A DNA stretch of 64,000 nucleotides. Origin: Elusimicrobiota bacterium. GTDB taxonomy: Bacteria; Elusimicrobiota; Elusimicrobia; UBA1565. The stretch is taken from positions 96,221 through 160,220 of the forward strand of contig JBDRPD010000053.1 of NCBI GenBank assembly GCA_043827405.1, in the 5' to 3' direction. Below the pieces are notes generated by a model. It saw only the letters and a program-made list of their open reading frames with translations. It had not been told where the DNA came from and made no database searches. This document shows, in pieces, positions 44,933 through 55,295 of this stretch; position 1 is the first letter of the stretch, and each line of letters starts with the position of its first letter. The position numbers were made by a program, and so were the translations under genes.

Positions 44933-46369
44933 ATGCCGAAATTTTCAGGATCGCGTCCGCCGGCGGTGGCGGGACGCTTCTACCCCGGCGATCCCGGCAA
45001 GCTCAGGACCGAAGTCGACGGCATGCTCGATGCCGCGCCGGACCCCGTCCCCGACGACAACGCGGTCGGCGGCGTCTCCCCGCATGCCGGCTACGCTTTT
45101 TCGGGCCGCCTCGCGGCGCGCGTCTGCAAAGCGCTCAAGCACAAGCGGCCCAAGACCATAGTGCTGCTCGGCACGGCGCATCACGAGGAGGTCGGCGGCC
45201 TCGCCCTGCCGGATACCGCCTCCTTCGCGACCCCGCTGGGCGAGGTCCCGGTCGATACCGGGATGGCGGAGGCCCTGCTGGCCGCCCACCCGGAAGTCAA
45301 AATCTCCCCCGCCGCCCATGCGCGCGAGCATTCACTTGAGGTCCAGCTCCCCTTTCTCCAACGCGCCCATGAAGGCGCCCATATCCTGCCGCTGCTCACC
45401 GGAGTCAAAAACCGGGGCTCCGCGGAGGAGCTCGGCCGGGAGCTCGGCCGGCTCATTAAGGAAAGAGACGCTTTACTGATCGTAGCCACCGACCTTTCGC
45501 ATTTCCCCTCCGATTCCGGAGCGCGGCGCAGCGACCTCGCCTTGCTGGCGGCGCTGGAAAAAATGGATGCGGATTTCCTCTGGGACGCCGATCGCGCCCT
45601 AATGCGTCTGGACATCCCGCAGCTGCACTGCACCGCCTGCGGCCTCGGCGCCGCGGCCGTCGGAATCACGGCCTGCCTGGAGCTGGACGCCGGCGTCTGC
45701 GAGGTCCTGCAGTACGCCAATTCCTATGACATCTCCGGCGACGCCGAACGGGTCGTGGGCTACGGCGCCGCGCTGTTTAAGAAGGGCGCGCGGCCGGACG
45801 GCCCCTTCTTCGGCCTGGGCGAGCAGGAAAAGTCGGCGCTCCTCAAGCTGGCGCGCGCGGCCCTCGCTGAATACCTGCGCACGGGAAAAGAGCCGGCGCC
45901 GCGCGCTTTCGACCTGCCCCTGCTCAATCTGCCCGGGGCGGCTTTCGTAACCTGGACCGAACGTTCGGCCTCCGCCGAACGCGAGCTGCGCGGCTGCGTG
46001 GGAACGACCCTGCGCGACCGGACGATCGGCAACTGCGTCGCCCATTTCGCCGTCCGCAGCGCCGTCTCCGACACGCGCTTTACTCCCGTCGCCGCGGCGG
46101 ACCTGCCCGCGCTGCATGCCGAGGTCTCGGTGCTCTCACCGTCCCGGCCATCCACCGCCGAGGCCGTCCGCCCCGGCCAGGGCGTGGTCTTCGAGCTCGG
46201 CCGCGCCCGCGGGCTGTTTCTGCCCCTGATGTGGGAGCGCTACCCGGACAAGGAAAAGTTCATGAACGTCCTCGCCGGCTCCAAGGCCGGCGCCCGGGAA
46301 GATGCCTGGAGAGATCCCGCGGCCAAGCTCTGGACCTTCGAAGCGGAGGCGTTCGGCGAAGAAGAATGA
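44933..46369 (+). CDS. AmmeMemoRadiSam system fusion protein: Memo-like (protein B) N-terminal domain fused to AMMECR1 (protein A) C-terminal domain
   Basis: The N-terminus AGRFYPGDPGKL...HAGYAFSG matches Memo/MEMO1-family motifs. The C-terminal half carries the AMMECR1 signature (LRGCVGTT...). It is translationally coupled (ATGA) to a radical SAM gene. Confidence 0.75.
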   Translation: MPKFSGSRPPAVAGRFYPGDPGKLRTEVDGMLDAAPDPVPDDNAVGGVSPHAGYAFSGRLAARVCKALKHKRPKTIVLLGTAHHEEVGGLALPDTASFATPLGEVPVDTGMAEALLAAHPEVKISPAAHAREHSLEVQLPFLQRAHEGAHILPLLTGVKNRGSAEELGRELGRLIKERDALLIVATDLSHFPSDSGARRSDLALLAALEKMDADFLWDADRALMRLDIPQLHCTACGLGAAAVGITACLELDAGVCEVLQYANSYDISGDAERVVGYGAALFKKGARPDGPFFGLGEQEKSALLKLARAALAEYLRTGKEPAPRAFDLPLLNLPGAAFVTWTERSASAERELRGCVGTTLRDRTIGNCVAHFAVRSAVSDTRFTPVAAADLPALHAEVSVLSPSRPSTAEAVRPGQGVVFELGRARGLFLPLMWERYPDKEKFMNVLAGSKAGAREDAWRDPAAKLWTFEAEAFGEEE

Positions 46370-47439
46370 CGGCCGACGCCTCTTTCCCGACCAAATACTG
46401 GCACCGTCTGCCCGACGACCGCGTGCAGTGCGACGTCTGCCCGCGCGCCTGCAAGCTGGCCGAGGGCCGGCACGGCCTATGCTTCGTGCGCAAGCGCGAG
46501 CACGGCGCCGTGGTGCTGACCACTTACGGCCGCTCCAGCGGCTTCTGCATCGATCCCATCGAGAAGAAGCCGCTCAACCACTTCCTGCCCGGCACGCCGG
46601 TCCTCTCCTTCGGCACCGCCGGCTGCAACCTGGCCTGCCGCTTCTGCCAAAACTGGAATATCAGCAAGTCCCGCGAGCACGACACCCTCGCCGCACAGGC
46701 TTCTCCCGAACGCATCGCCCGCGCCGCCCAAGAGCACGGCTGTTCCGGCGTCGCCTTCACCTACAACGATCCGGTGATCTTCCTCGAATACGCCGTCGAT
46801 ACCGCCGCCGCCTGCCATAAGCTCGGCGTCCGCACGATCGCCGTCACCGCGGGCTACATCACGCCCCTGGCCCGCGGCGAATTCTACCGGAATATGGACG
46901 CGGCCAACGTGGACCTCAAGGCCTTCAGCGAGAGCTTCTACGCCAAGCACTGCTCCGGGCGGCTGGCCGATATTCTGGACACTCTGGTCTACATCAAAAA
47001 AGAAACGAAGGTCTGGCTGGAGCTCACCACTCTCCTCATTCCGGGCCTCAACGACGACGCGCGGGAGATCGACGCCATGACGCGCTGGATCGCCGCCGAG
47101 CTCGGCGCCGACGTGCCGCTCCACTTCACCGCTTTTCATCCCGACTGGAAGCTGACCGACCGGCCGCGCACCCCGCTCGCTACCCTTTCCCGCTCCCGCG
47201 ACATCGGCAAAAAGAACGGGCTCCTCCACGTCTATACCGGCAACGTCAGCGACCCGGAGGGCGAGAGCACCTACTGCGGCGGCTGCGGGAAACCGCTCAT
47301 CGGCCGCGACCGCTACCGGCTCTCCGCATGGGAACTTGACGCGAACGGAAACTGCCGCAGCTGCGGCGAGCGGCTCGCCGGCGTCTTCGCCGGGCCGCCC
47401 GGAGACTGGGGCGCGCGGCGGCAACTTATTTCCCTATGA
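46366..47439 (+). CDS. AmmeMemoRadiSam system radical SAM enzyme
   Basis: The radical-SAM Cx3Cx2C cluster (CNLACRFCQNW) follows a CxxC-containing N-terminus (CDVCPRAC). The ATG at 46366 overlaps the upstream TGA. Confidence 0.8.
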   Translation: MTADASFPTKYWHRLPDDRVQCDVCPRACKLAEGRHGLCFVRKREHGAVVLTTYGRSSGFCIDPIEKKPLNHFLPGTPVLSFGTAGCNLACRFCQNWNISKSREHDTLAAQASPERIARAAQEHGCSGVAFTYNDPVIFLEYAVDTAAACHKLGVRTIAVTAGYITPLARGEFYRNMDAANVDLKAFSESFYAKHCSGRLADILDTLVYIKKETKVWLELTTLLIPGLNDDAREIDAMTRWIAAELGADVPLHFTAFHPDWKLTDRPRTPLATLSRSRDIGKKNGLLHVYTGNVSDPEGESTYCGGCGKPLIGRDRYRLSAWELDANGNCRSCGERLAGVFAGPPGDWGARRQLISL

Positions 47440-48105
47440 GCGCATGAGCTCGCGCACGTAGCGATCGGCCTCGCGCGTCGGTTTGGGCACCCGCTGGCCG
47501 TCGCAAACGGCGCGCGTCAGGCGCATCGCGCTCTTCATGTCGATCAGATGCCCGGGCGAGACATAGACCGGACGCCGGCATTCGCCGGCGCGGAAGGCCG
47601 TCCCGATCTGTTCCCCCTGGTGCAGGAGCGGCGCGGTCGAGCCAAAACCCGAAGCGGGAGTGCGATGGGTGCCGATCAGCACCGACTTGGCCACCCCGAT
47701 CGTCGGGATGCCCAGCCACAGCCCCATATGGCAGGCCAGTCCGAAACCGCGCGGATGCGCGATGCCGTGGGCGTCGAAGAAGGCGGCATCCGGCTCGCTC
47801 TTGAGCTTGCGGAAGGCCGCCAGCAGGGCCGGCGCCTCGCGGAAGCTCAACAGGCCCGGCACGTACGGGAAGTTCATGTCGGAGACGGCCCACACGCGCT
47901 CGACTTCCTTGAGCGACGGCACCGCGTAGACGACGAGCCCCGCGGTGGCCCGCATGGTCGTTAAGTCATAGCCGCAGTCGGCCCCCACCGCCAGCTTCGC
48001 CGAGACCTTGTACGGCGTAAAAATGAGCTTCTCGCGCAGCTTCAGCTGCAGCTCTTTGGCCTTGGCGGGGGTGAGGTCCCAGTCGTGCAGCTCCCTGATC
48101 TTCAT
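47434..48105 (-). CDS. nfi: Endonuclease V (deoxyinosine 3'-endonuclease)
   Basis: Strong similarity to E. coli Nfi (YVPGLLSFREAPALLAAF, DAHGIAHPRGFGLACH, GIPTIGVAKS). The real start is the ATG at about 48105; the track's 48390 is a long spurious extension. Confidence 0.8.
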   Translation of the reverse strand: MKIRELHDWDLTPAKAKELQLKLREKLIFTPYKVSAKLAVGADCGYDLTTMRATAGLVVYAVPSLKEVERVWAVSDMNFPYVPGLLSFREAPALLAAFRKLKSEPDAAFFDAHGIAHPRGFGLACHMGLWLGIPTIGVAKSVLIGTHRTPASGFGSTAPLLHQGEQIGTAFRAGECRRPVYVSPGHLIDMKSAMRLTRAVCDGQRVPKPTREADRYVRELMRS

Positions 48106-48118
48106 ACGAAACCGCCTT

Positions 48119-49231
48119 TCATCCTTTAGAGAGCTTAGCCCGCGCGACGGGAATGCGCCAGGGGATTTCAGGACCGATCTCGGGAGCGCCCGCGAAATGG
48201 TCCGGCTCGCGACGCCGGTCCTCATTGTAGATTCGTTGGAGCTCGTCCCAGCCCATAGCCCCGCCGCCTTCCGGCGCCCGCCCGGCCGCCGCAGACGCGC
48301 GCGCCAGACAGGCCGGAATTTTTTCGGCCAAGCGCAGAATCTCCCGTTCGACCTCCTCGGCGTACGGATGCGCGGCGGCCCGGCGGACATCCGCGGCGAA
48401 ACGGCGGCCGTCCGCGGAGGGAAGCCAGTCCAGCACCTCCTTGAGATGGGCCTCGGCCGCGTCGAGGAGCCGGCGGCGCTCCGGCAGGTGCACGTCCCGC
48501 CACGACCGCAGCTCGTCGAGGACGCCCTTGAGCCGCTCCTGTTCGATCCCGTGCGCGAGCATCAGATGAGAGGCGAACCAGAACCAGTGGCGGTTCTTGC
48601 TCCGCACGTACTCCAGGCTCCCGCGGCGGCGCGCGAGCTCCGCGAGCCGCGCTTCGACCGATTTTCGCGGGGTTAGGGCCTCGCCGCGGCTCAGGCTCAG
48701 GCGCCGCTGTTCGGAATCCAGAAAAAGGATCACTTGGTGGTAGGCGTCCATGCCCGTCCCGAGGTCCGCGGCCGTTTCGCCCGCCGGCACGCCTCCGAGC
48801 TCGCAGGCGGCCGCCGCGCCCACGGCCAGCGAGTAGGCCTCATTCTCCTCCAGATGCAGGAACGTCTCGATCCCCCTGCTCCGGACTTCCCGCCCAAGCA
48901 GGACGTGGCCGTAGAGCTCATGGGCCAAAGTCTCGGCCACGATCGTTCCGGTCGACCGGATGAGCCCCTCGCTGAGAAGGATGCGCGCGGGGAGCGCCCC
49001 GCTGTCCGCCCGGCCCCAGCCTCCCTTATGGGCGACATCCGAGGAAAAGGAAACGAGATAGCCGAAGTCCCGGCGCGTCTCAAGACGCGCGGCGGTCGGG
49101 CTCTTCTTGAGCGCGGAGAGGGCCCTCTCGATAACGGCGCGCTCCTCCGGCCGCCCGCGGTCCGCGATCGTCGGCGGCTCCGCGGCGCGGCAGAGGAGGG
49201 CGAGAATCGAAAGCAGCGGGAGCAGGCTCAC
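48119..49231 (-). CDS. Secreted putative zinc metalloprotease (HExxH protein)
   Basis: A signal peptide is present, and AHELYGH fits an HExxH zincin motif. No further family assignment. The start is a GTG. Confidence 0.45.
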   Translation of the reverse strand: MSLLPLLSILALLCRAAEPPTIADRGRPEERAVIERALSALKKSPTAARLETRRDFGYLVSFSSDVAHKGGWGRADSGALPARILLSEGLIRSTGTIVAETLAHELYGHVLLGREVRSRGIETFLHLEENEAYSLAVGAAAACELGGVPAGETAADLGTGMDAYHQVILFLDSEQRRLSLSRGEALTPRKSVEARLAELARRRGSLEYVRSKNRHWFWFASHLMLAHGIEQERLKGVLDELRSWRDVHLPERRRLLDAAEAHLKEVLDWLPSADGRRFAADVRRAAAHPYAEEVEREILRLAEKIPACLARASAAAGRAPEGGGAMGWDELQRIYNEDRRREPDHFAGAPEIGPEIPWRIPVARAKLSKG

Positions 49232-51934: not shown

Positions 51935-54900
51935 TTAGCCGTCGCCGCGGCGGACGCGCATGGTGCGCAGCGGCGCGCCGGCGAGGTCCTTGAGGACCCG
52001 GCGGCTGATGCCGCGATGGCTGATCTTGGCGTCCTTGAGCTCGACCAGCGCCCCCTCGACGATGTCCTCGACGTTCCTGCCGTCGGCGCGCAGGGCAACC
52101 AAGGCCGCCAGGAGCGGCCGCAGGCTGGGGTTGTGGCCGCGCACTTCGACGTAAGCCCCCACGTAAATACTGCCGTCCTTGGTCCTCAGCGCCGCTCCCG
52201 CCGGGCTGTCCTTGGAGTAAGAACGGTTGGCGGCGCGGAAGGCCGCGTTGATCAGGTCGGCGCCGGCGCCGGAGGGCTTACGGATCATCGCCAAATTATT
52301 ATCGCGCGCCGTCAGCAAAGAGCCGTCGTCGCCGTAGGGCATGGGGTAGAGCTCGGCCAGAGTCGCCGGCTTCTCCCGGCTTTCCACGATAATCTTCATG
52401 CTGCCGCGAGAGGCCAGCTCATTGAGAAAAGCCCGGCAATGCCCGCAGGGATTGGCCGTGACCGCGAGAGCCTTGAGCCCGGTCTCGCCATGCTCCAAAG
52501 CGTTGATGACCACCGCCTGCTCGGCGTGGATATTCACCTCGATGCCGCCGGCGTAGGATTCGATATTGCCGCCCAGGTAGACGGCGCCGCTCTCGCCCAA
52601 GCCCACGGCGCCCACCGAACGCCCGGATACCGACGGCATCGCCTTCTTGGCCGCGATGGGCCGCAAAGCGCTGATGAGCTCTTCCGGCGACACATCCAAA
52701 GCTTCCGTCAGCTCCGCCGCCTTCGCGGGGCTGAGATAAGAGGGATTGCCTTCCTCCTCAAGCCGCGCTGCCAGATCGGCCGTCAGGTAGGCCTCCGAGA
52801 GGATCAGCTTGTCGCGCGCCACCGATTGGCCGATCATGCCGGTGAACAGCTCGGCGAGCCCGGCATTCCTGCCATGCTCCGCCCAGTCCTCGGCGAGAAG
52901 CTCGGCGAAAGACTCGGCGAGGTTCGCCACCTCGTCCTTGCTCGTCATCTCGATGAAGTAGTCGGCGTGGTGGCGCAGGGGCATGATATGCTTCTTCTCG
53001 TTCTCCAGCACCCGCTCCCAGCCCTTGAGGTTGTCCTCGATGGAGCGGCCGCGCTCATACTTGTCGCGCTTGAGCCGGCGGGCGAGACGGGCGGCCGTCG
53101 GCGCCGACAGGAAGACGTTAAGGTTGGTATGTCCCACTCCGGCCTTGAGCAAGGTCTTGTGGGCGGCGAAGATCGAATCGACGATGAGCACATCCTCCTT
53201 GCCCAGCTGCATATAGTCGCCGGTCTTGAATTCGGTGGTCATCTTTTCCATATTGCGGTAAGGCATTTCCACCCGCCGGCCTTCGAGAAGCGCCTTGATA
53301 TCGGCGGCGGCGCGGTCGAGATACAGCGCGTCCGGCCGGTCGAAATCGGGGCTGCCGTCGGCCAGCCGCGGCACGTCGTTGGGATTCTTGAAATAGGAGT
53401 CCACCGGGAAGACCTTAATGCGCTCGCCCATGGTCTTGGCCAAACGCTTGGCCAAGGTGGATTTGCCGGCCGCCGTGGGCGCCTGCAGATAGATCAGGCT
53501 GCGGCCGGGGAGCGCCTCGGCCATGGTCACGAAATGATCCAGCCGCTGCTCCAGATCGCCGTCGGTGAACTTCGCATAATCGATGTCTTTAAAGATCCCG
53601 CTCACCGTCCGGCGCGCTTCCGGCAGATAGCGCGCCTTGCGGTACTTGATCAGCGCGCTCGCGGCGCGGGCGGCCAGCGGCGCGCCCGCCTTTTTGAGAA
53701 ACGCGCCGACGCCTTCAACCGCGCGAATTCCGGGGCCGAGGACGGCATTGGTGGGGCCCGGGAAGTAGTACTGAGCGAGAACGGTCGAGGAGGCCGTGAT
53801 AGCGACCACCGCATTAAGCACCCAGGACATGTCGCCGAGCATGACGGCGGCGTAAAGATGGAGGAGGCTGCCCAGCGCGACCAGCCCGGGCCATAGCGGG
53901 GAGAGCCCCTCAGGCCGGCGGCCGTCTTCCTTGTATAGGTGGTAGTAGCTCTTGATCTGCGGCCAGTTGATCAGCCAGCAGAGATAGAGCGCCGCGGTCA
54001 AAGCCAAAGACAGCCAGGAAGACAGCGGCATGAAGGCCTGCAGCGCGATAAAGGGCAGAGGCAGCAGCGCCGCCGCCATGGCCAGCCCGGTGGCGATAAG
54101 CACCTTCCTGCTGCGCTGGGCATTGTTGATCTGGCCGATAAGAAGGATGCTCTCAAGCACCCCCGCCAAGTTGGCGCCTATCCACCACGGGTTGGCGGCC
54201 TGGCCGATGGAAACGACCGAGAACATGACGGCGGCGGCGAACCAGATCAGCGGAGTGGCGACGGGCACGTCCATCACGGCTTTGCGGCCCTCTTTAAAAT
54301 TTTTATAAATCTGCGGAACGCCGATAACGCTCAGGACGATGCTGCCCGCCCCGGCGACCAGGCCGACATGCGCCGCCAGCGCCGGAAGGGCGGCGACGAT
54401 TCCCGCGCCCGCCGCCAGCGCCGCGGCCCAGCGGACCGCCGGCTTCTGCCATAAGCGCGCCAGAGCCGAAGGCGCTTTGGCCTCGGCGGCGCTGAAATCC
54501 GCATTTTCTACCGCCGGCTTGTTCTGGTAATCATCAGCGGCTTGGCCTTGCGTCTTATGCAGGAGGACACGAGCGGCGCGGCCGCGGTGGAGCGCTCCGG
54601 CCTGGGCGGAAGTTTTGCTGCCGGCCGTGCCCTGCGTGGCGATCAGCTCGCTGCCGCGCAGCGCGGAGAAGAGCCTGTCCGCCGCCTCCTTCGAAACCTC
54701 GCCGCCGGCGGTCGCCTTAAATCCCTTGAGCTGGAGCGCCTTGCCGACGCGCCGGGTGATCGCCCGCAAGCCTTTGCCGCCGGCCTCATCTTTGGCCGCG
54801 ACCGCGGCGGTCTCGGCGCTATTCTCGCCGGCGACGGTCCCGGTACGGACCAGCGGGATGACCCGGCCTGGGTGCCGGACATGGCCGGTCTCGACGGCAA

Positions 54901-55201
54901 TCGTCCGCTGATGATCCGAGAGCGAAATGACCTTATTGCCGCCGCTAACCGCCGGCAGCGCGCCGACGTTCACATTGGGCAGTACCGCGGAGAGCTTGTA
55001 GCCGTCGGCGGCGAAAACGGACGGATTGCTGAAATTGAGCGCCTGCACGACCGGGACCGGCGCGGCCTGGACCGGCGAGGTCTTGACCTGCACCTGAGCC
55101 TGGACGACGACCCCGGCGATCGCCTCGCATGGCGCGCCGAAAAAGGTCCAGCCGAATTGCAGCAGGGCCAGGAGTCCGGCGAGCGACCGTTTCATCCTCA
55201 T
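51935..55201 (-). CDS. Multi-domain fusion: secreted/low-complexity N-terminus, PQ-loop (PnuC/SWEET-like) 7-TM domain, uridine-kinase/PRK-family P-loop nucleoside kinase, and tandem (two-domain) cytidine deaminase
   Basis: It is a single uninterrupted frame. Two PQ-loop motifs (VPQIYKNFKEG and WPQIKSYYHLYKEDGRRPEGLS) lie within about 7 TM helices. The kinase Walker-A and PRK pattern is LIYLQAPTAAGKSTLAKRL...VFPVDSYF. The cytidine deaminase zinc motifs are HAEQAVV...PCGHCRAF, followed by a second degenerate cytidine deaminase domain, as in E. coli Cdd. The start is an ATG at 55201 or 55195 (MRMKRSLAGLL..., a signal peptide), or a GTG at 55225. Confidence 0.65.
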   Translation of the reverse strand: MRMKRSLAGLLALLQFGWTFFGAPCEAIAGVVVQAQVQVKTSPVQAAPVPVVQALNFSNPSVFAADGYKLSAVLPNVNVGALPAVSGGNKVISLSDHQRTIAVETGHVRHPGRVIPLVRTGTVAGENSAETAAVAAKDEAGGKGLRAITRRVGKALQLKGFKATAGGEVSKEAADRLFSALRGSELIATQGTAGSKTSAQAGALHRGRAARVLLHKTQGQAADDYQNKPAVENADFSAAEAKAPSALARLWQKPAVRWAAALAAGAGIVAALPALAAHVGLVAGAGSIVLSVIGVPQIYKNFKEGRKAVMDVPVATPLIWFAAAVMFSVVSIGQAANPWWIGANLAGVLESILLIGQINNAQRSRKVLIATGLAMAAALLPLPFIALQAFMPLSSWLSLALTAALYLCWLINWPQIKSYYHLYKEDGRRPEGLSPLWPGLVALGSLLHLYAAVMLGDMSWVLNAVVAITASSTVLAQYYFPGPTNAVLGPGIRAVEGVGAFLKKAGAPLAARAASALIKYRKARYLPEARRTVSGIFKDIDYAKFTDGDLEQRLDHFVTMAEALPGRSLIYLQAPTAAGKSTLAKRLAKTMGERIKVFPVDSYFKNPNDVPRLADGSPDFDRPDALYLDRAAADIKALLEGRRVEMPYRNMEKMTTEFKTGDYMQLGKEDVLIVDSIFAAHKTLLKAGVGHTNLNVFLSAPTAARLARRLKRDKYERGRSIEDNLKGWERVLENEKKHIMPLRHHADYFIEMTSKDEVANLAESFAELLAEDWAEHGRNAGLAELFTGMIGQSVARDKLILSEAYLTADLAARLEEEGNPSYLSPAKAAELTEALDVSPEELISALRPIAAKKAMPSVSGRSVGAVGLGESGAVYLGGNIESYAGGIEVNIHAEQAVVINALEHGETGLKALAVTANPCGHCRAFLNELASRGSMKIIVESREKPATLAELYPMPYGDDGSLLTARDNNLAMIRKPSGAGADLINAAFRAANRSYSKDSPAGAALRTKDGSIYVGAYVEVRGHNPSLRPLLAALVALRADGRNVEDIVEGALVELKDAKISHRGISRRVLKDLAGAPLRTMRVRRGDG

Positions 55202-55295
55202 CCTTATAAATATAGTGCGCTTCACGGCCGGCGGCAGGTGTCATCTGGGGCAGATTTCGCCGGCCAAACGCACTACTTATTGCGGGCCCAAGGGC

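Follow-up and report, generated by a model that had tools for sequence, protein, structure and literature searches.

A PQ-loop/SWEET-fold membrane domain joined to a uridine-kinase-family kinase and a cytidine deaminase in Elusimicrobiota: a putative single-chain system for nucleoside import and trapping

Is a reading frame that joins a membrane domain, a P-loop kinase and a cytidine deaminase a real gene, and what could these parts do in a single chain? The question is raised by one gene of a 64,000-nucleotide stretch of Elusimicrobiota bacterium DNA (assembly GCA_043827405.1, contig JBDRPD010000053.1, positions 96,221 to 160,220), the whole of which is referred to here as the window. An earlier annotation, made by a model from the letters alone (the sequence-only reading), had described the product as a self-contained module that imports, deaminates and phosphorylates cytidine and uridine through a PnuC-like membrane domain. 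In the present analysis, five parts were recognized in order along the chain: a signal-peptide-like N-terminus, a low-complexity region, a membrane domain with two PQ motifs, a kinase of the PRK/Udk family, and an E. coli-type two-domain cytidine deaminase, Cdd (Table 1). The protein is best read as an inner-membrane machine that would by itself salvage pyrimidine nucleosides, combining import with chemical trapping; the probability of this reading is put at roughly 0.55.

The gene is contained in one unbroken open reading frame (ORF) on the minus strand, running from GTG at 55225 to the TAA stop at 51937-51935, and neither a stop nor a frame break was found across the 3.26 kb of the fusion. 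The DNA is 65% G+C and long antisense ORFs are also present, all spurious; domain E-values down to 4.5e-55 place the coding strand beyond doubt and rule out a chance ORF. The start taken by the sequence-only reading, 55201, is indeed the first ATG, but the second ATG at 55195 (MKRSLAG...) is the likelier start, since AAGGA is located 5 nt upstream and since the public NCBI model uses it; the alternatives lie upstream, ATG at 55201 and GTG at 55225. The public protein (P0001), named “MAG: cytidine deaminase [Elusimicrobiota bacterium]” and located on a 194,892-bp contig, has 1086 residues and is 100% identical to the window protein. That exact sequence was found on one contig only, a point in favor of the view that separate genes were united in the long ORF by an assembly error or a frameshift. 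Two relatives, P0019 (1085 aa) and P0022 (1105 aa), show the same order of PQ-loop, PRK, dCMP_cyt_deam_1 and dCMP_cyt_deam_2 domains, and are 42-45% identical to P0001 over the full length, with the alignment crossing the kinase-deaminase junction. The Cdd part starts directly at the point where the stand-alone-type kinases of relatives stop, and the helical segment with which E. coli-type Cdd begins is part of it. The membrane-kinase fusion itself is kept by dozens of relatives from independent metagenomes and metagenome-assembled genomes (MAGs). Since the same domain order and an alignable junction recur in P0019 and P0022 from independent assemblies, the fusion is real; the chance that it is an artefact is negligible, and an assembly artefact is excluded for practical purposes. 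The single continuous frame of the sequence-only reading was thus borne out.

The membrane domain was examined by profile, repeat and structure comparison. The Pfam PQ-loop model PF04193 gave 21.0 bits over residues 284-339 against a gathering cut-off of 22, the hidden Markov model detecting the first repeat only; among 16 relatives scanned, 10 passed (23.1-38.9 bits), five reached 16.7-20.7 bits, and P0004 gave no PQ-loop match in the Pfam scan. The two PQ dipeptides of the window protein are spaced by 118 residues, a distance shared by the six homologues in which both are retained; in P0003 the second site reads PQL. With hhalign, one three-helix half was matched to the other (probability 96%, E = 4.4e-9), and an AlphaFold2 model built from 36 family sequences (mean predicted local distance difference test score, pLDDT, 92.1; predicted TM-score, pTM, 0.82) shows the 3+1+3 helix pattern of two-repeat PQ-loop proteins. 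In Foldseek comparison, cystinosin was the top match (E = 3.6e-4, TM-score 0.62) and SWEETs and KDEL receptors came next, in agreement with the seven-helix fold of this group; in the profile-to-PDB sequence search SemiSWEET was the top match, below significance (E = 0.057). Within the membrane, Trp318, Asn342, Gln355, Trp458 and Gln475 are invariant or near-invariant across proteins that are 30-55% identical, and this Trp/Asn-rich set may recall the binding pockets of SWEETs.

Based on the PQ repeats, the repeat-repeat alignment, the AlphaFold2 model and the Foldseek matches, the membrane domain is assigned to the PQ-loop/SWEET fold, as a divergent bacterial representative, and not to the Pnu proteins. 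Membership of the Pnu family was considered and rejected: PF04973 (NMN_transporter) gave no match at E <= 1 in the window protein, and PnuC-type structures were absent among the fold matches of the membrane domain. Of the description given by the sequence-only reading, both PQ motifs and a seven-helix core therefore stand, an extra helix at residues 252-271 had been missed, and the label “PnuC-like” falls, the domain belonging to the PQ-loop/SWEET/KDEL-receptor fold.

On which side of the membrane are the enzymes located? When the loop charges were averaged over 36 aligned family sequences, the mean number of Lys plus Arg on one face was 3.6 after the first PQ motif, 2.6 between helices 3 and 4, 3.5 after the second PQ motif and 4.1 after helix 7, against 0.2, 0.0 and 0.6 in the loops of the opposite face. 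Under the positive-inside rule, this bias places the post-PQ loops and the C-terminus in the cytoplasm, so that the ATP-dependent kinase and the deaminase face this compartment, in accord with the orientation that the sequence-only reading called for. SWEETs and cystinosin have the same orientation, with post-PQ loops and C-terminus in the cytoplasm.

The N-terminal region most likely lies on the other side. A basic start, 12-16 hydrophobic residues and A-x-A form a layout common to nearly all full-length family members, and because this classical signal-peptide layout is so widespread, export of the N-terminal region is favored and the low-complexity region is most likely periplasmic. The Pfam scan of residues 28-246 gave no match. 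Within this region a 22-residue motif with the consensus APAESS[KR]GAAE.vFA.LrGEkLI is the best-conserved block among the N-terminal regions of 39 family members; it is common to the kinase-type and the phosphatase-type members (see below), and no search suggested a function for it. Ahead of the seven-helix core is an extra hydrophobic helix, designated TM0, of which the N-terminal flank is rich in Lys and Arg. An extra helix ahead of the core is also found in P0024, P0036, P0038 and P0043, a loop between TM0 and helix 1, or an additional hydrophobic segment, is present in some relatives, and a 255-residue stand-alone family member begins with TM0.

The kinase domain carries the P-loop APTAAGKST (residues 572-580), the catalytic Asp within PVDSYF (597-602), the motif FDRPDA (618-623), and the lid RLARRLKRDKYERGRS at residues 703-718. 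PF00485 (PRK/uridine kinase) matched residues 570-758 with 57.7 bits against a cut-off of 22, placing the domain within this superfamily, and among solved structures the best matches are the Thermus uridine-cytidine kinase (PDB 3asy, E = 3e-20) and human UCK1/2, with phosphoribulokinases lower. When 38 family kinases were aligned with UCK2 and the Thermus enzyme, the residues corresponding to UCK2 Lys33, Asp62, Asp84, Arg166, Arg169 and Arg174, which we take to be the contacts for phosphate, catalytic base and ribose 2'/3'-OH, were all found in the window protein and were kept by 36-38 of the 38 family kinases. Judged from these residues, the domain has the appearance of an active kinase that phosphorylates the 5'-OH of a ribose-bearing acceptor. 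When the kinase domain alone served as the query of a word-indexed search, the only matches were four short proteins (320-443 aa, all on contigs of <5 kb), and no architecture outside those described here was returned.

The deaminase part is of the E. coli type. NCBIfam NF006537 (cytidine deaminase) gave 187.1 bits over residues 803-1081 against an equivalog cut-off of 153, and Pfam detected both halves, dCMP_cyt_deam_1 (PF00383) at residues 850-930 with 44.1 bits and dCMP_cyt_deam_2 (PF08211) at residues 959-1065 with 83.2 bits; the older model TIGR01355 gave 176.8 bits, below its cut-off of 275. About 260 residues of the Cdd part were aligned with the Klebsiella, Vibrio and E. coli enzymes (PDB 6k63, 4eg2 and 1af2; E = 1e-37 to 2e-35). 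The catalytic domain (residues 848-928) contains HAEQ (890-893) and PCGHC (916-920), which in the alignments to 1af2 and 6k63 fall on the zinc and Glu motifs, and is followed by the second, non-catalytic domain (957-1063); the ribose-contact motif G-N-x-E is also kept. The Cdd-like tandem deaminase of the sequence-only reading holds, and the part is apparently an active zinc cytidine deaminase.

Is the window protein a single curiosity? An exhaustive HMMER search with the membrane-domain profile against 1.84 billion representatives returned 50 proteins, 41 of them with E <= 1e-30, and no canonical PQ-loop/MtN3 member was among the matches. All of the 22 loci collected from one-genome-per-species contigs belonged to MAGs of Elusimicrobia/Elusimicrobiota, in a search for which a narrower family alignment was used and in which the phosphatase-type subfamily is possibly under-sampled. 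The window protein is one member of an Elusimicrobiota-restricted family, not a one-off. In public databases the family appears under the names “cytidine deaminase”, “uridine kinase” and “hypothetical protein”, by which the membrane domain is hidden.

The partners fused to the common core differ among the members. The kinase alone follows the core in the majority, and kinase plus Cdd in the window protein, P0019 and P0022. In P0023, L013, L015 and L024 the kinase is followed by a divergent two-domain module related to cytidine deaminase (CDA), the first half of which is of the tetrameric type (cyt_deam_tetra, E = 1e-12) and which carries CAER and CAEC motifs. At five loci (L009, L011, L018, L019 and L020) the kinase is followed by a nucleoside monophosphate (NMP) kinase of the adenylate/UMP-CMP family, which in P0021 comes straight after the core without the Udk-like kinase. 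A CdsA-like CTP_transf_1 domain (176 bits) follows the kinase in P0005, and an HD-like domain is located at the C-terminal end, after the kinase, in P0028. Upstream of the core, members that lack the kinase can carry a HAD-IIB phosphatase with the DxDxT, Lys and Asp motifs intact and, in P0034, P0039 and P0041, an RNase_T DEDDh exonuclease. The exonuclease comes before the HAD domain in P0034 and P0041; P0039 gave no HAD match. P0019, which is of the Cdd type, shares 71-77% core identity with members in which the unrelated CDA-like module is present (P0023, L015 and L024), indicating that the deaminase at that position was exchanged rather than lost, and this exchange argues for selection on the combination.

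Some properties of these accessory modules were also noted. The fused adenylate-kinase-family module of L009, L011, L018, L019, L020 and P0021 scored under all adenylate kinase and UMP-CMP kinase cut-offs, and carries a Glu in FPRRQEE at what we take to be the position of the AMP-specific Gln of adenylate kinases; an NMP kinase with a different specificity is a possibility. The RNase T-type DEDDh domains sit behind a signal peptide, an unusual location for the RNase T family if they are exported. The C-terminal end of P0041 carries a beta-lactamase-family domain (214 bits), and that of P0040 a further domain of 200 residues.

From these parts the following mechanism is proposed. The membrane domain would act as a facilitator of the uniporter type, through which a nucleoside, most likely cytidine and/or uridine, diffuses in; the tethered deaminase would convert cytidine to uridine, and the tethered kinase would phosphorylate the 5'-OH to give the 5'-monophosphate. 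The charged product would be trapped inside, so that an inward gradient is maintained. In the sister proteins, an exonuclease and a phosphatase occupy the place that the low-complexity region has in the window protein; if exported, they could yield nucleosides from extracellular nucleic acid. Metabolic coupling is built into the chain, in that the kinase is covalently joined to the membrane core in the window protein and in most relatives; this coupling is a mechanistic analogy with Pnu transporters, and not a sign of membership. Uptake of a nucleoside that is then trapped through phosphorylation and deamination is supported by the nucleic-acid theme of the modules fused to the same core in relatives. 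The import-deaminate-phosphorylate module of the sequence-only reading thus gains from the relatives, while we infer its transport step, its kinase specificity and its direction of flux.

Several features weigh against this proposal. A signal peptide, TM0 and seven core helices together would bring a parity conflict into the topology; cleavage of a signal peptide can be reconciled with seven crossings if TM0 and helix 1 form one helix, as in the AlphaFold2 model, in which TM0 and the first half of helix 1 are drawn as a single helix of 38 residues. In the deaminase, the Phe that precedes the first conserved Gly stretch of E. coli Cdd, and that presumably packs on the base, is replaced by Arg in the window protein and by Lys in P0019 and P0022. 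The kinase missed the udk equivalog models by far (NF004018, 89.1 bits against 180; TIGR00235, 84.6 bits against 220.3), and the base-reading residues of UCK enzymes (Tyr112 and His117 of UCK2; Tyr88 and Tyr93 of the Thermus enzyme) are lost. The Tyr112 position is occupied by Arg (in the family by His in most, or Asn, Arg or Tyr), the His117 position by Met (Glu, Gly, Gln or Pro in relatives), and the Phe114 position also by Met; the Arg176 position keeps its Arg in the window protein, although most of the family has Ile. Since the base-reading residues are not kept, specificity for cytidine or uridine cannot be read from the kinase. The name “uridine-kinase-like” is accordingly justified at the level of the superfamily and falls far under the level of the udk equivalogs, and the loss of the base-recognizing residues, beside catalytic and ribose-contacting ones that are kept, bears on one of the conditions that the sequence-only reading had named as refuting it.

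A kinase that keeps its ribose and catalytic residues without those for the base would also suit a different substrate, and the carrier and kinase may act on some other ribose or sugar compound (free sugar, modified nucleoside or other riboside), with the deaminase an accessory tethered nearby. SWEETs and SemiSWEETs, which are sugar carriers, are among the best fold matches, SemiSWEET leading the profile-to-PDB search at its non-significant E-value, and the HAD module of the sister proteins is most like sugar-phosphate phosphatases and mutases. This possibility is regarded as rather unlikely in view of the five kinds of nucleic-acid module found in the family, i.e., two unrelated types of cytidine deaminase, the NMP kinase, the CdsA-like CTP-using enzyme and the RNase T-type exonuclease, while none of the approximately 70 family sequences is fused to a sugar kinase, isomerase or glycosidase. 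Unlikely, too, is a role of the seven-helix domain as an anchor, or as a ligand sensor in the manner of the KDEL receptor, by which the salvage enzymes would be placed or regulated at the membrane, for instance beside CDP-diacylglycerol synthesis: the near-invariance of the PQ motifs and of the five intramembrane residues named above fits a substrate path better than a passive anchor, and the modules on either side of the membrane make up a coherent pathway from outside to inside.

The direction of flux could in principle be the reverse, cytoplasmic nucleosides being exported and the fused enzymes controlling the intracellular pool. Characterized carriers of the PQ-loop/SWEET fold are reported to be bidirectional. 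If TM0 truly crosses the membrane, with which its Lys/Arg-rich flank agrees, the exonuclease and phosphatase of the sister proteins would be cytoplasmic and feed the carrier from inside. Export is nonetheless improbable, because a cytoplasmic kinase opposes the export of its own substrate, a classical signal peptide starts nearly all members, and the phosphatase-type and kinase-type members are separate proteins. With nucleoside import and trapping as the preferred reading for the window protein, a wider picture of the family can be drawn tentatively, at somewhat less than even odds, in which Elusimicrobiota turned a PQ-loop/SWEET-fold carrier into a modular covalent pipeline for scavenging nucleic acids. 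In this pipeline the RNase T-type exonuclease and the HAD phosphatase would make nucleosides outside, the seven-helix core would pass them through the membrane, and the Udk-like kinase, the NMP kinase, either kind of deaminase and the CdsA-like enzyme would act at the cytoplasmic exit, the window protein being the transporter-kinase-deaminase version.

How far does the system resemble known ones? The Pnu vitamin transporters (PnuC with NadR, PnuT with thiamine pyrophosphokinase) likewise combine a facilitator having a 3+1+3 core with a cytoplasmic trapping kinase, but the trapping kinase is separate in Pnu systems and covalent in the window protein. For PnuT, facilitated diffusion was shown, phosphorylated forms were not transported, and trapping by a separately encoded kinase was proposed (PMC5749112). 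With the PQ-loop/MtN3 clan (cystinosin, PQLC2, SWEETs, SemiSWEETs and KDEL receptor) the sequence similarity of the window protein is marginal, as the 21 bits to PF04193 indicate. Its known substrates are sugars, cystine, basic amino acids and peptides, and we know of no clan member reported to be fused to enzymes. Bacterial PQ-loop/MtN3 members are mostly SemiSWEETs with three transmembrane helices, few having seven, and the survey of prokaryotic SemiSWEET/PQ-loop proteins describes repeat duplication and fusion only, the word kinase being absent from it (PMC5972207).

Classical salvage in E. coli (NupC/NupG, Udk and Cdd) employs the same two enzyme families as the window protein, of which the window kinase, lacking the UCK base-reading residues, is divergent from Udk. 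The E. coli pathway consists of at least three separate proteins, and uptake is proton-driven through unrelated carriers. In Haemophilus, NAD and NMN are used by way of periplasmic NadN and e(P4), then PnuC, then NadR, all separate proteins, with nicotinamide riboside as the substrate. The sister proteins with exonuclease and HAD phosphatase share this logic, to degrade and dephosphorylate outside, import the riboside and re-phosphorylate inside; unlike in the Haemophilus route, the periplasmic place of their N-terminal modules is predicted from the signal peptide. Searches of the full-text literature found no combination of PQ-loop and uridine kinase, no nucleoside transporter fused to these enzymes, and nothing relevant on nucleoside salvage in Elusimicrobia, in line with the remark of the sequence-only reading that it knew of no description of the architecture. 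Each domain family is already known, and so is the general principle, a facilitator coupled to metabolic trapping, which is built in this case on the PQ-loop carrier fold; the novelty lies in the covalent fusion, in a clade restricted to Elusimicrobiota, in the modular range of partners and in the implied substrate class.

No conserved gene neighborhood was detected in the contexts of P0002-P0005, L006 and the window neighbors, and none of the window neighbors recurred beside family members when searched by tblastn against 27 loci. A unit whose partners are encoded in cis would be expected to lack such a context. A role in anti-phage defense was rejected, PADLOC having given no match of note. 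The coordinates of the fusion gene, its parts and its neighbors are given in Table 1. Elsewhere in the window, a single 478-residue ORF at 44933-46366 on the plus strand fuses Memo-like and AMMECR1 domains (176 and 116 bits), and a 318-residue ORF at 47437-48390 on the minus strand contains an Endonuclease V domain (212 bits) at residues 118-310, with an N-terminal extension of about 117 residues if the start of the ORF is correct.

Table 1. Positions within the window of the fusion gene, its predicted parts and the flanking genes
Feature	Residues	Position	Strand	Basis or remark
Whole coding sequence	1-1086	51935..55195	minus	1086 aa + stop; identical to public NCBI model P0001
Putative signal-peptide-like N-terminus	1-27	55115..55195	minus	MKR, hydrophobic stretch, PCEAIA; read from sequence
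Ala/Val/Gln/Pro-rich low-complexity region	28-246	54458..55114	minus	Sequence composition
Conserved 22-aa motif GGEVSKEAADRLFSALRGSELI	164-185	54641..54706	minus	Within low-complexity region
PQ-loop membrane domain	247-496	53708..54457	minus	3+1+3 helix core
Extra hydrophobic helix TM0	252-271	54383..54442	minus	Hydropathy; precedes seven-helix core
PQ motif 1	294-295	54311-54316	minus	PQ dipeptide
PQ motif 2	412-413	53957-53962	minus	PQ dipeptide
Basic linker, membrane domain to kinase	497-567	53495..53707	minus	~4 Lys/Arg at C-terminal flank of core, indicating the cytoplasmic side
PRK/uridine-kinase-family P-loop kinase	568-756	52928..53494	minus	PF00485, motifs, PDB relatives
E. coli-type two-domain cytidine deaminase	801-1079	51959..52795	minus	NF006537, PF00383, PF08211, PDB matches
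Six-hairpin-glycosidase-like protein	860 aa	49293-51872	minus	62 nt downstream of fusion gene, same strand
Pre-ATP-grasp protein	518 aa	55299-56852	minus	Flanking gene
GDSL-lipase-like + TPR protein	888 aa	56801-59464	plus	Flanking gene

If the pipeline picture is right, the PQ-loop/SWEET superfamily would gain its first nucleoside carrier in the window protein, which would also be the first transporter covalently fused to its trapping kinase. The substrate range of the fold would then extend to nucleosides. With the carrier and the trapping enzymes in one chain, it would be the clearest natural case of metabolic trapping, and coupling, stoichiometry and possible substrate channelling at the transporter exit would become testable with a single construct. 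The interchangeable modules would serve as a natural “Rosetta stone” for the function of an unannotated, phylum-restricted membrane family, and the system would bear on how uncultured groundwater Elusimicrobiota obtain pyrimidines.

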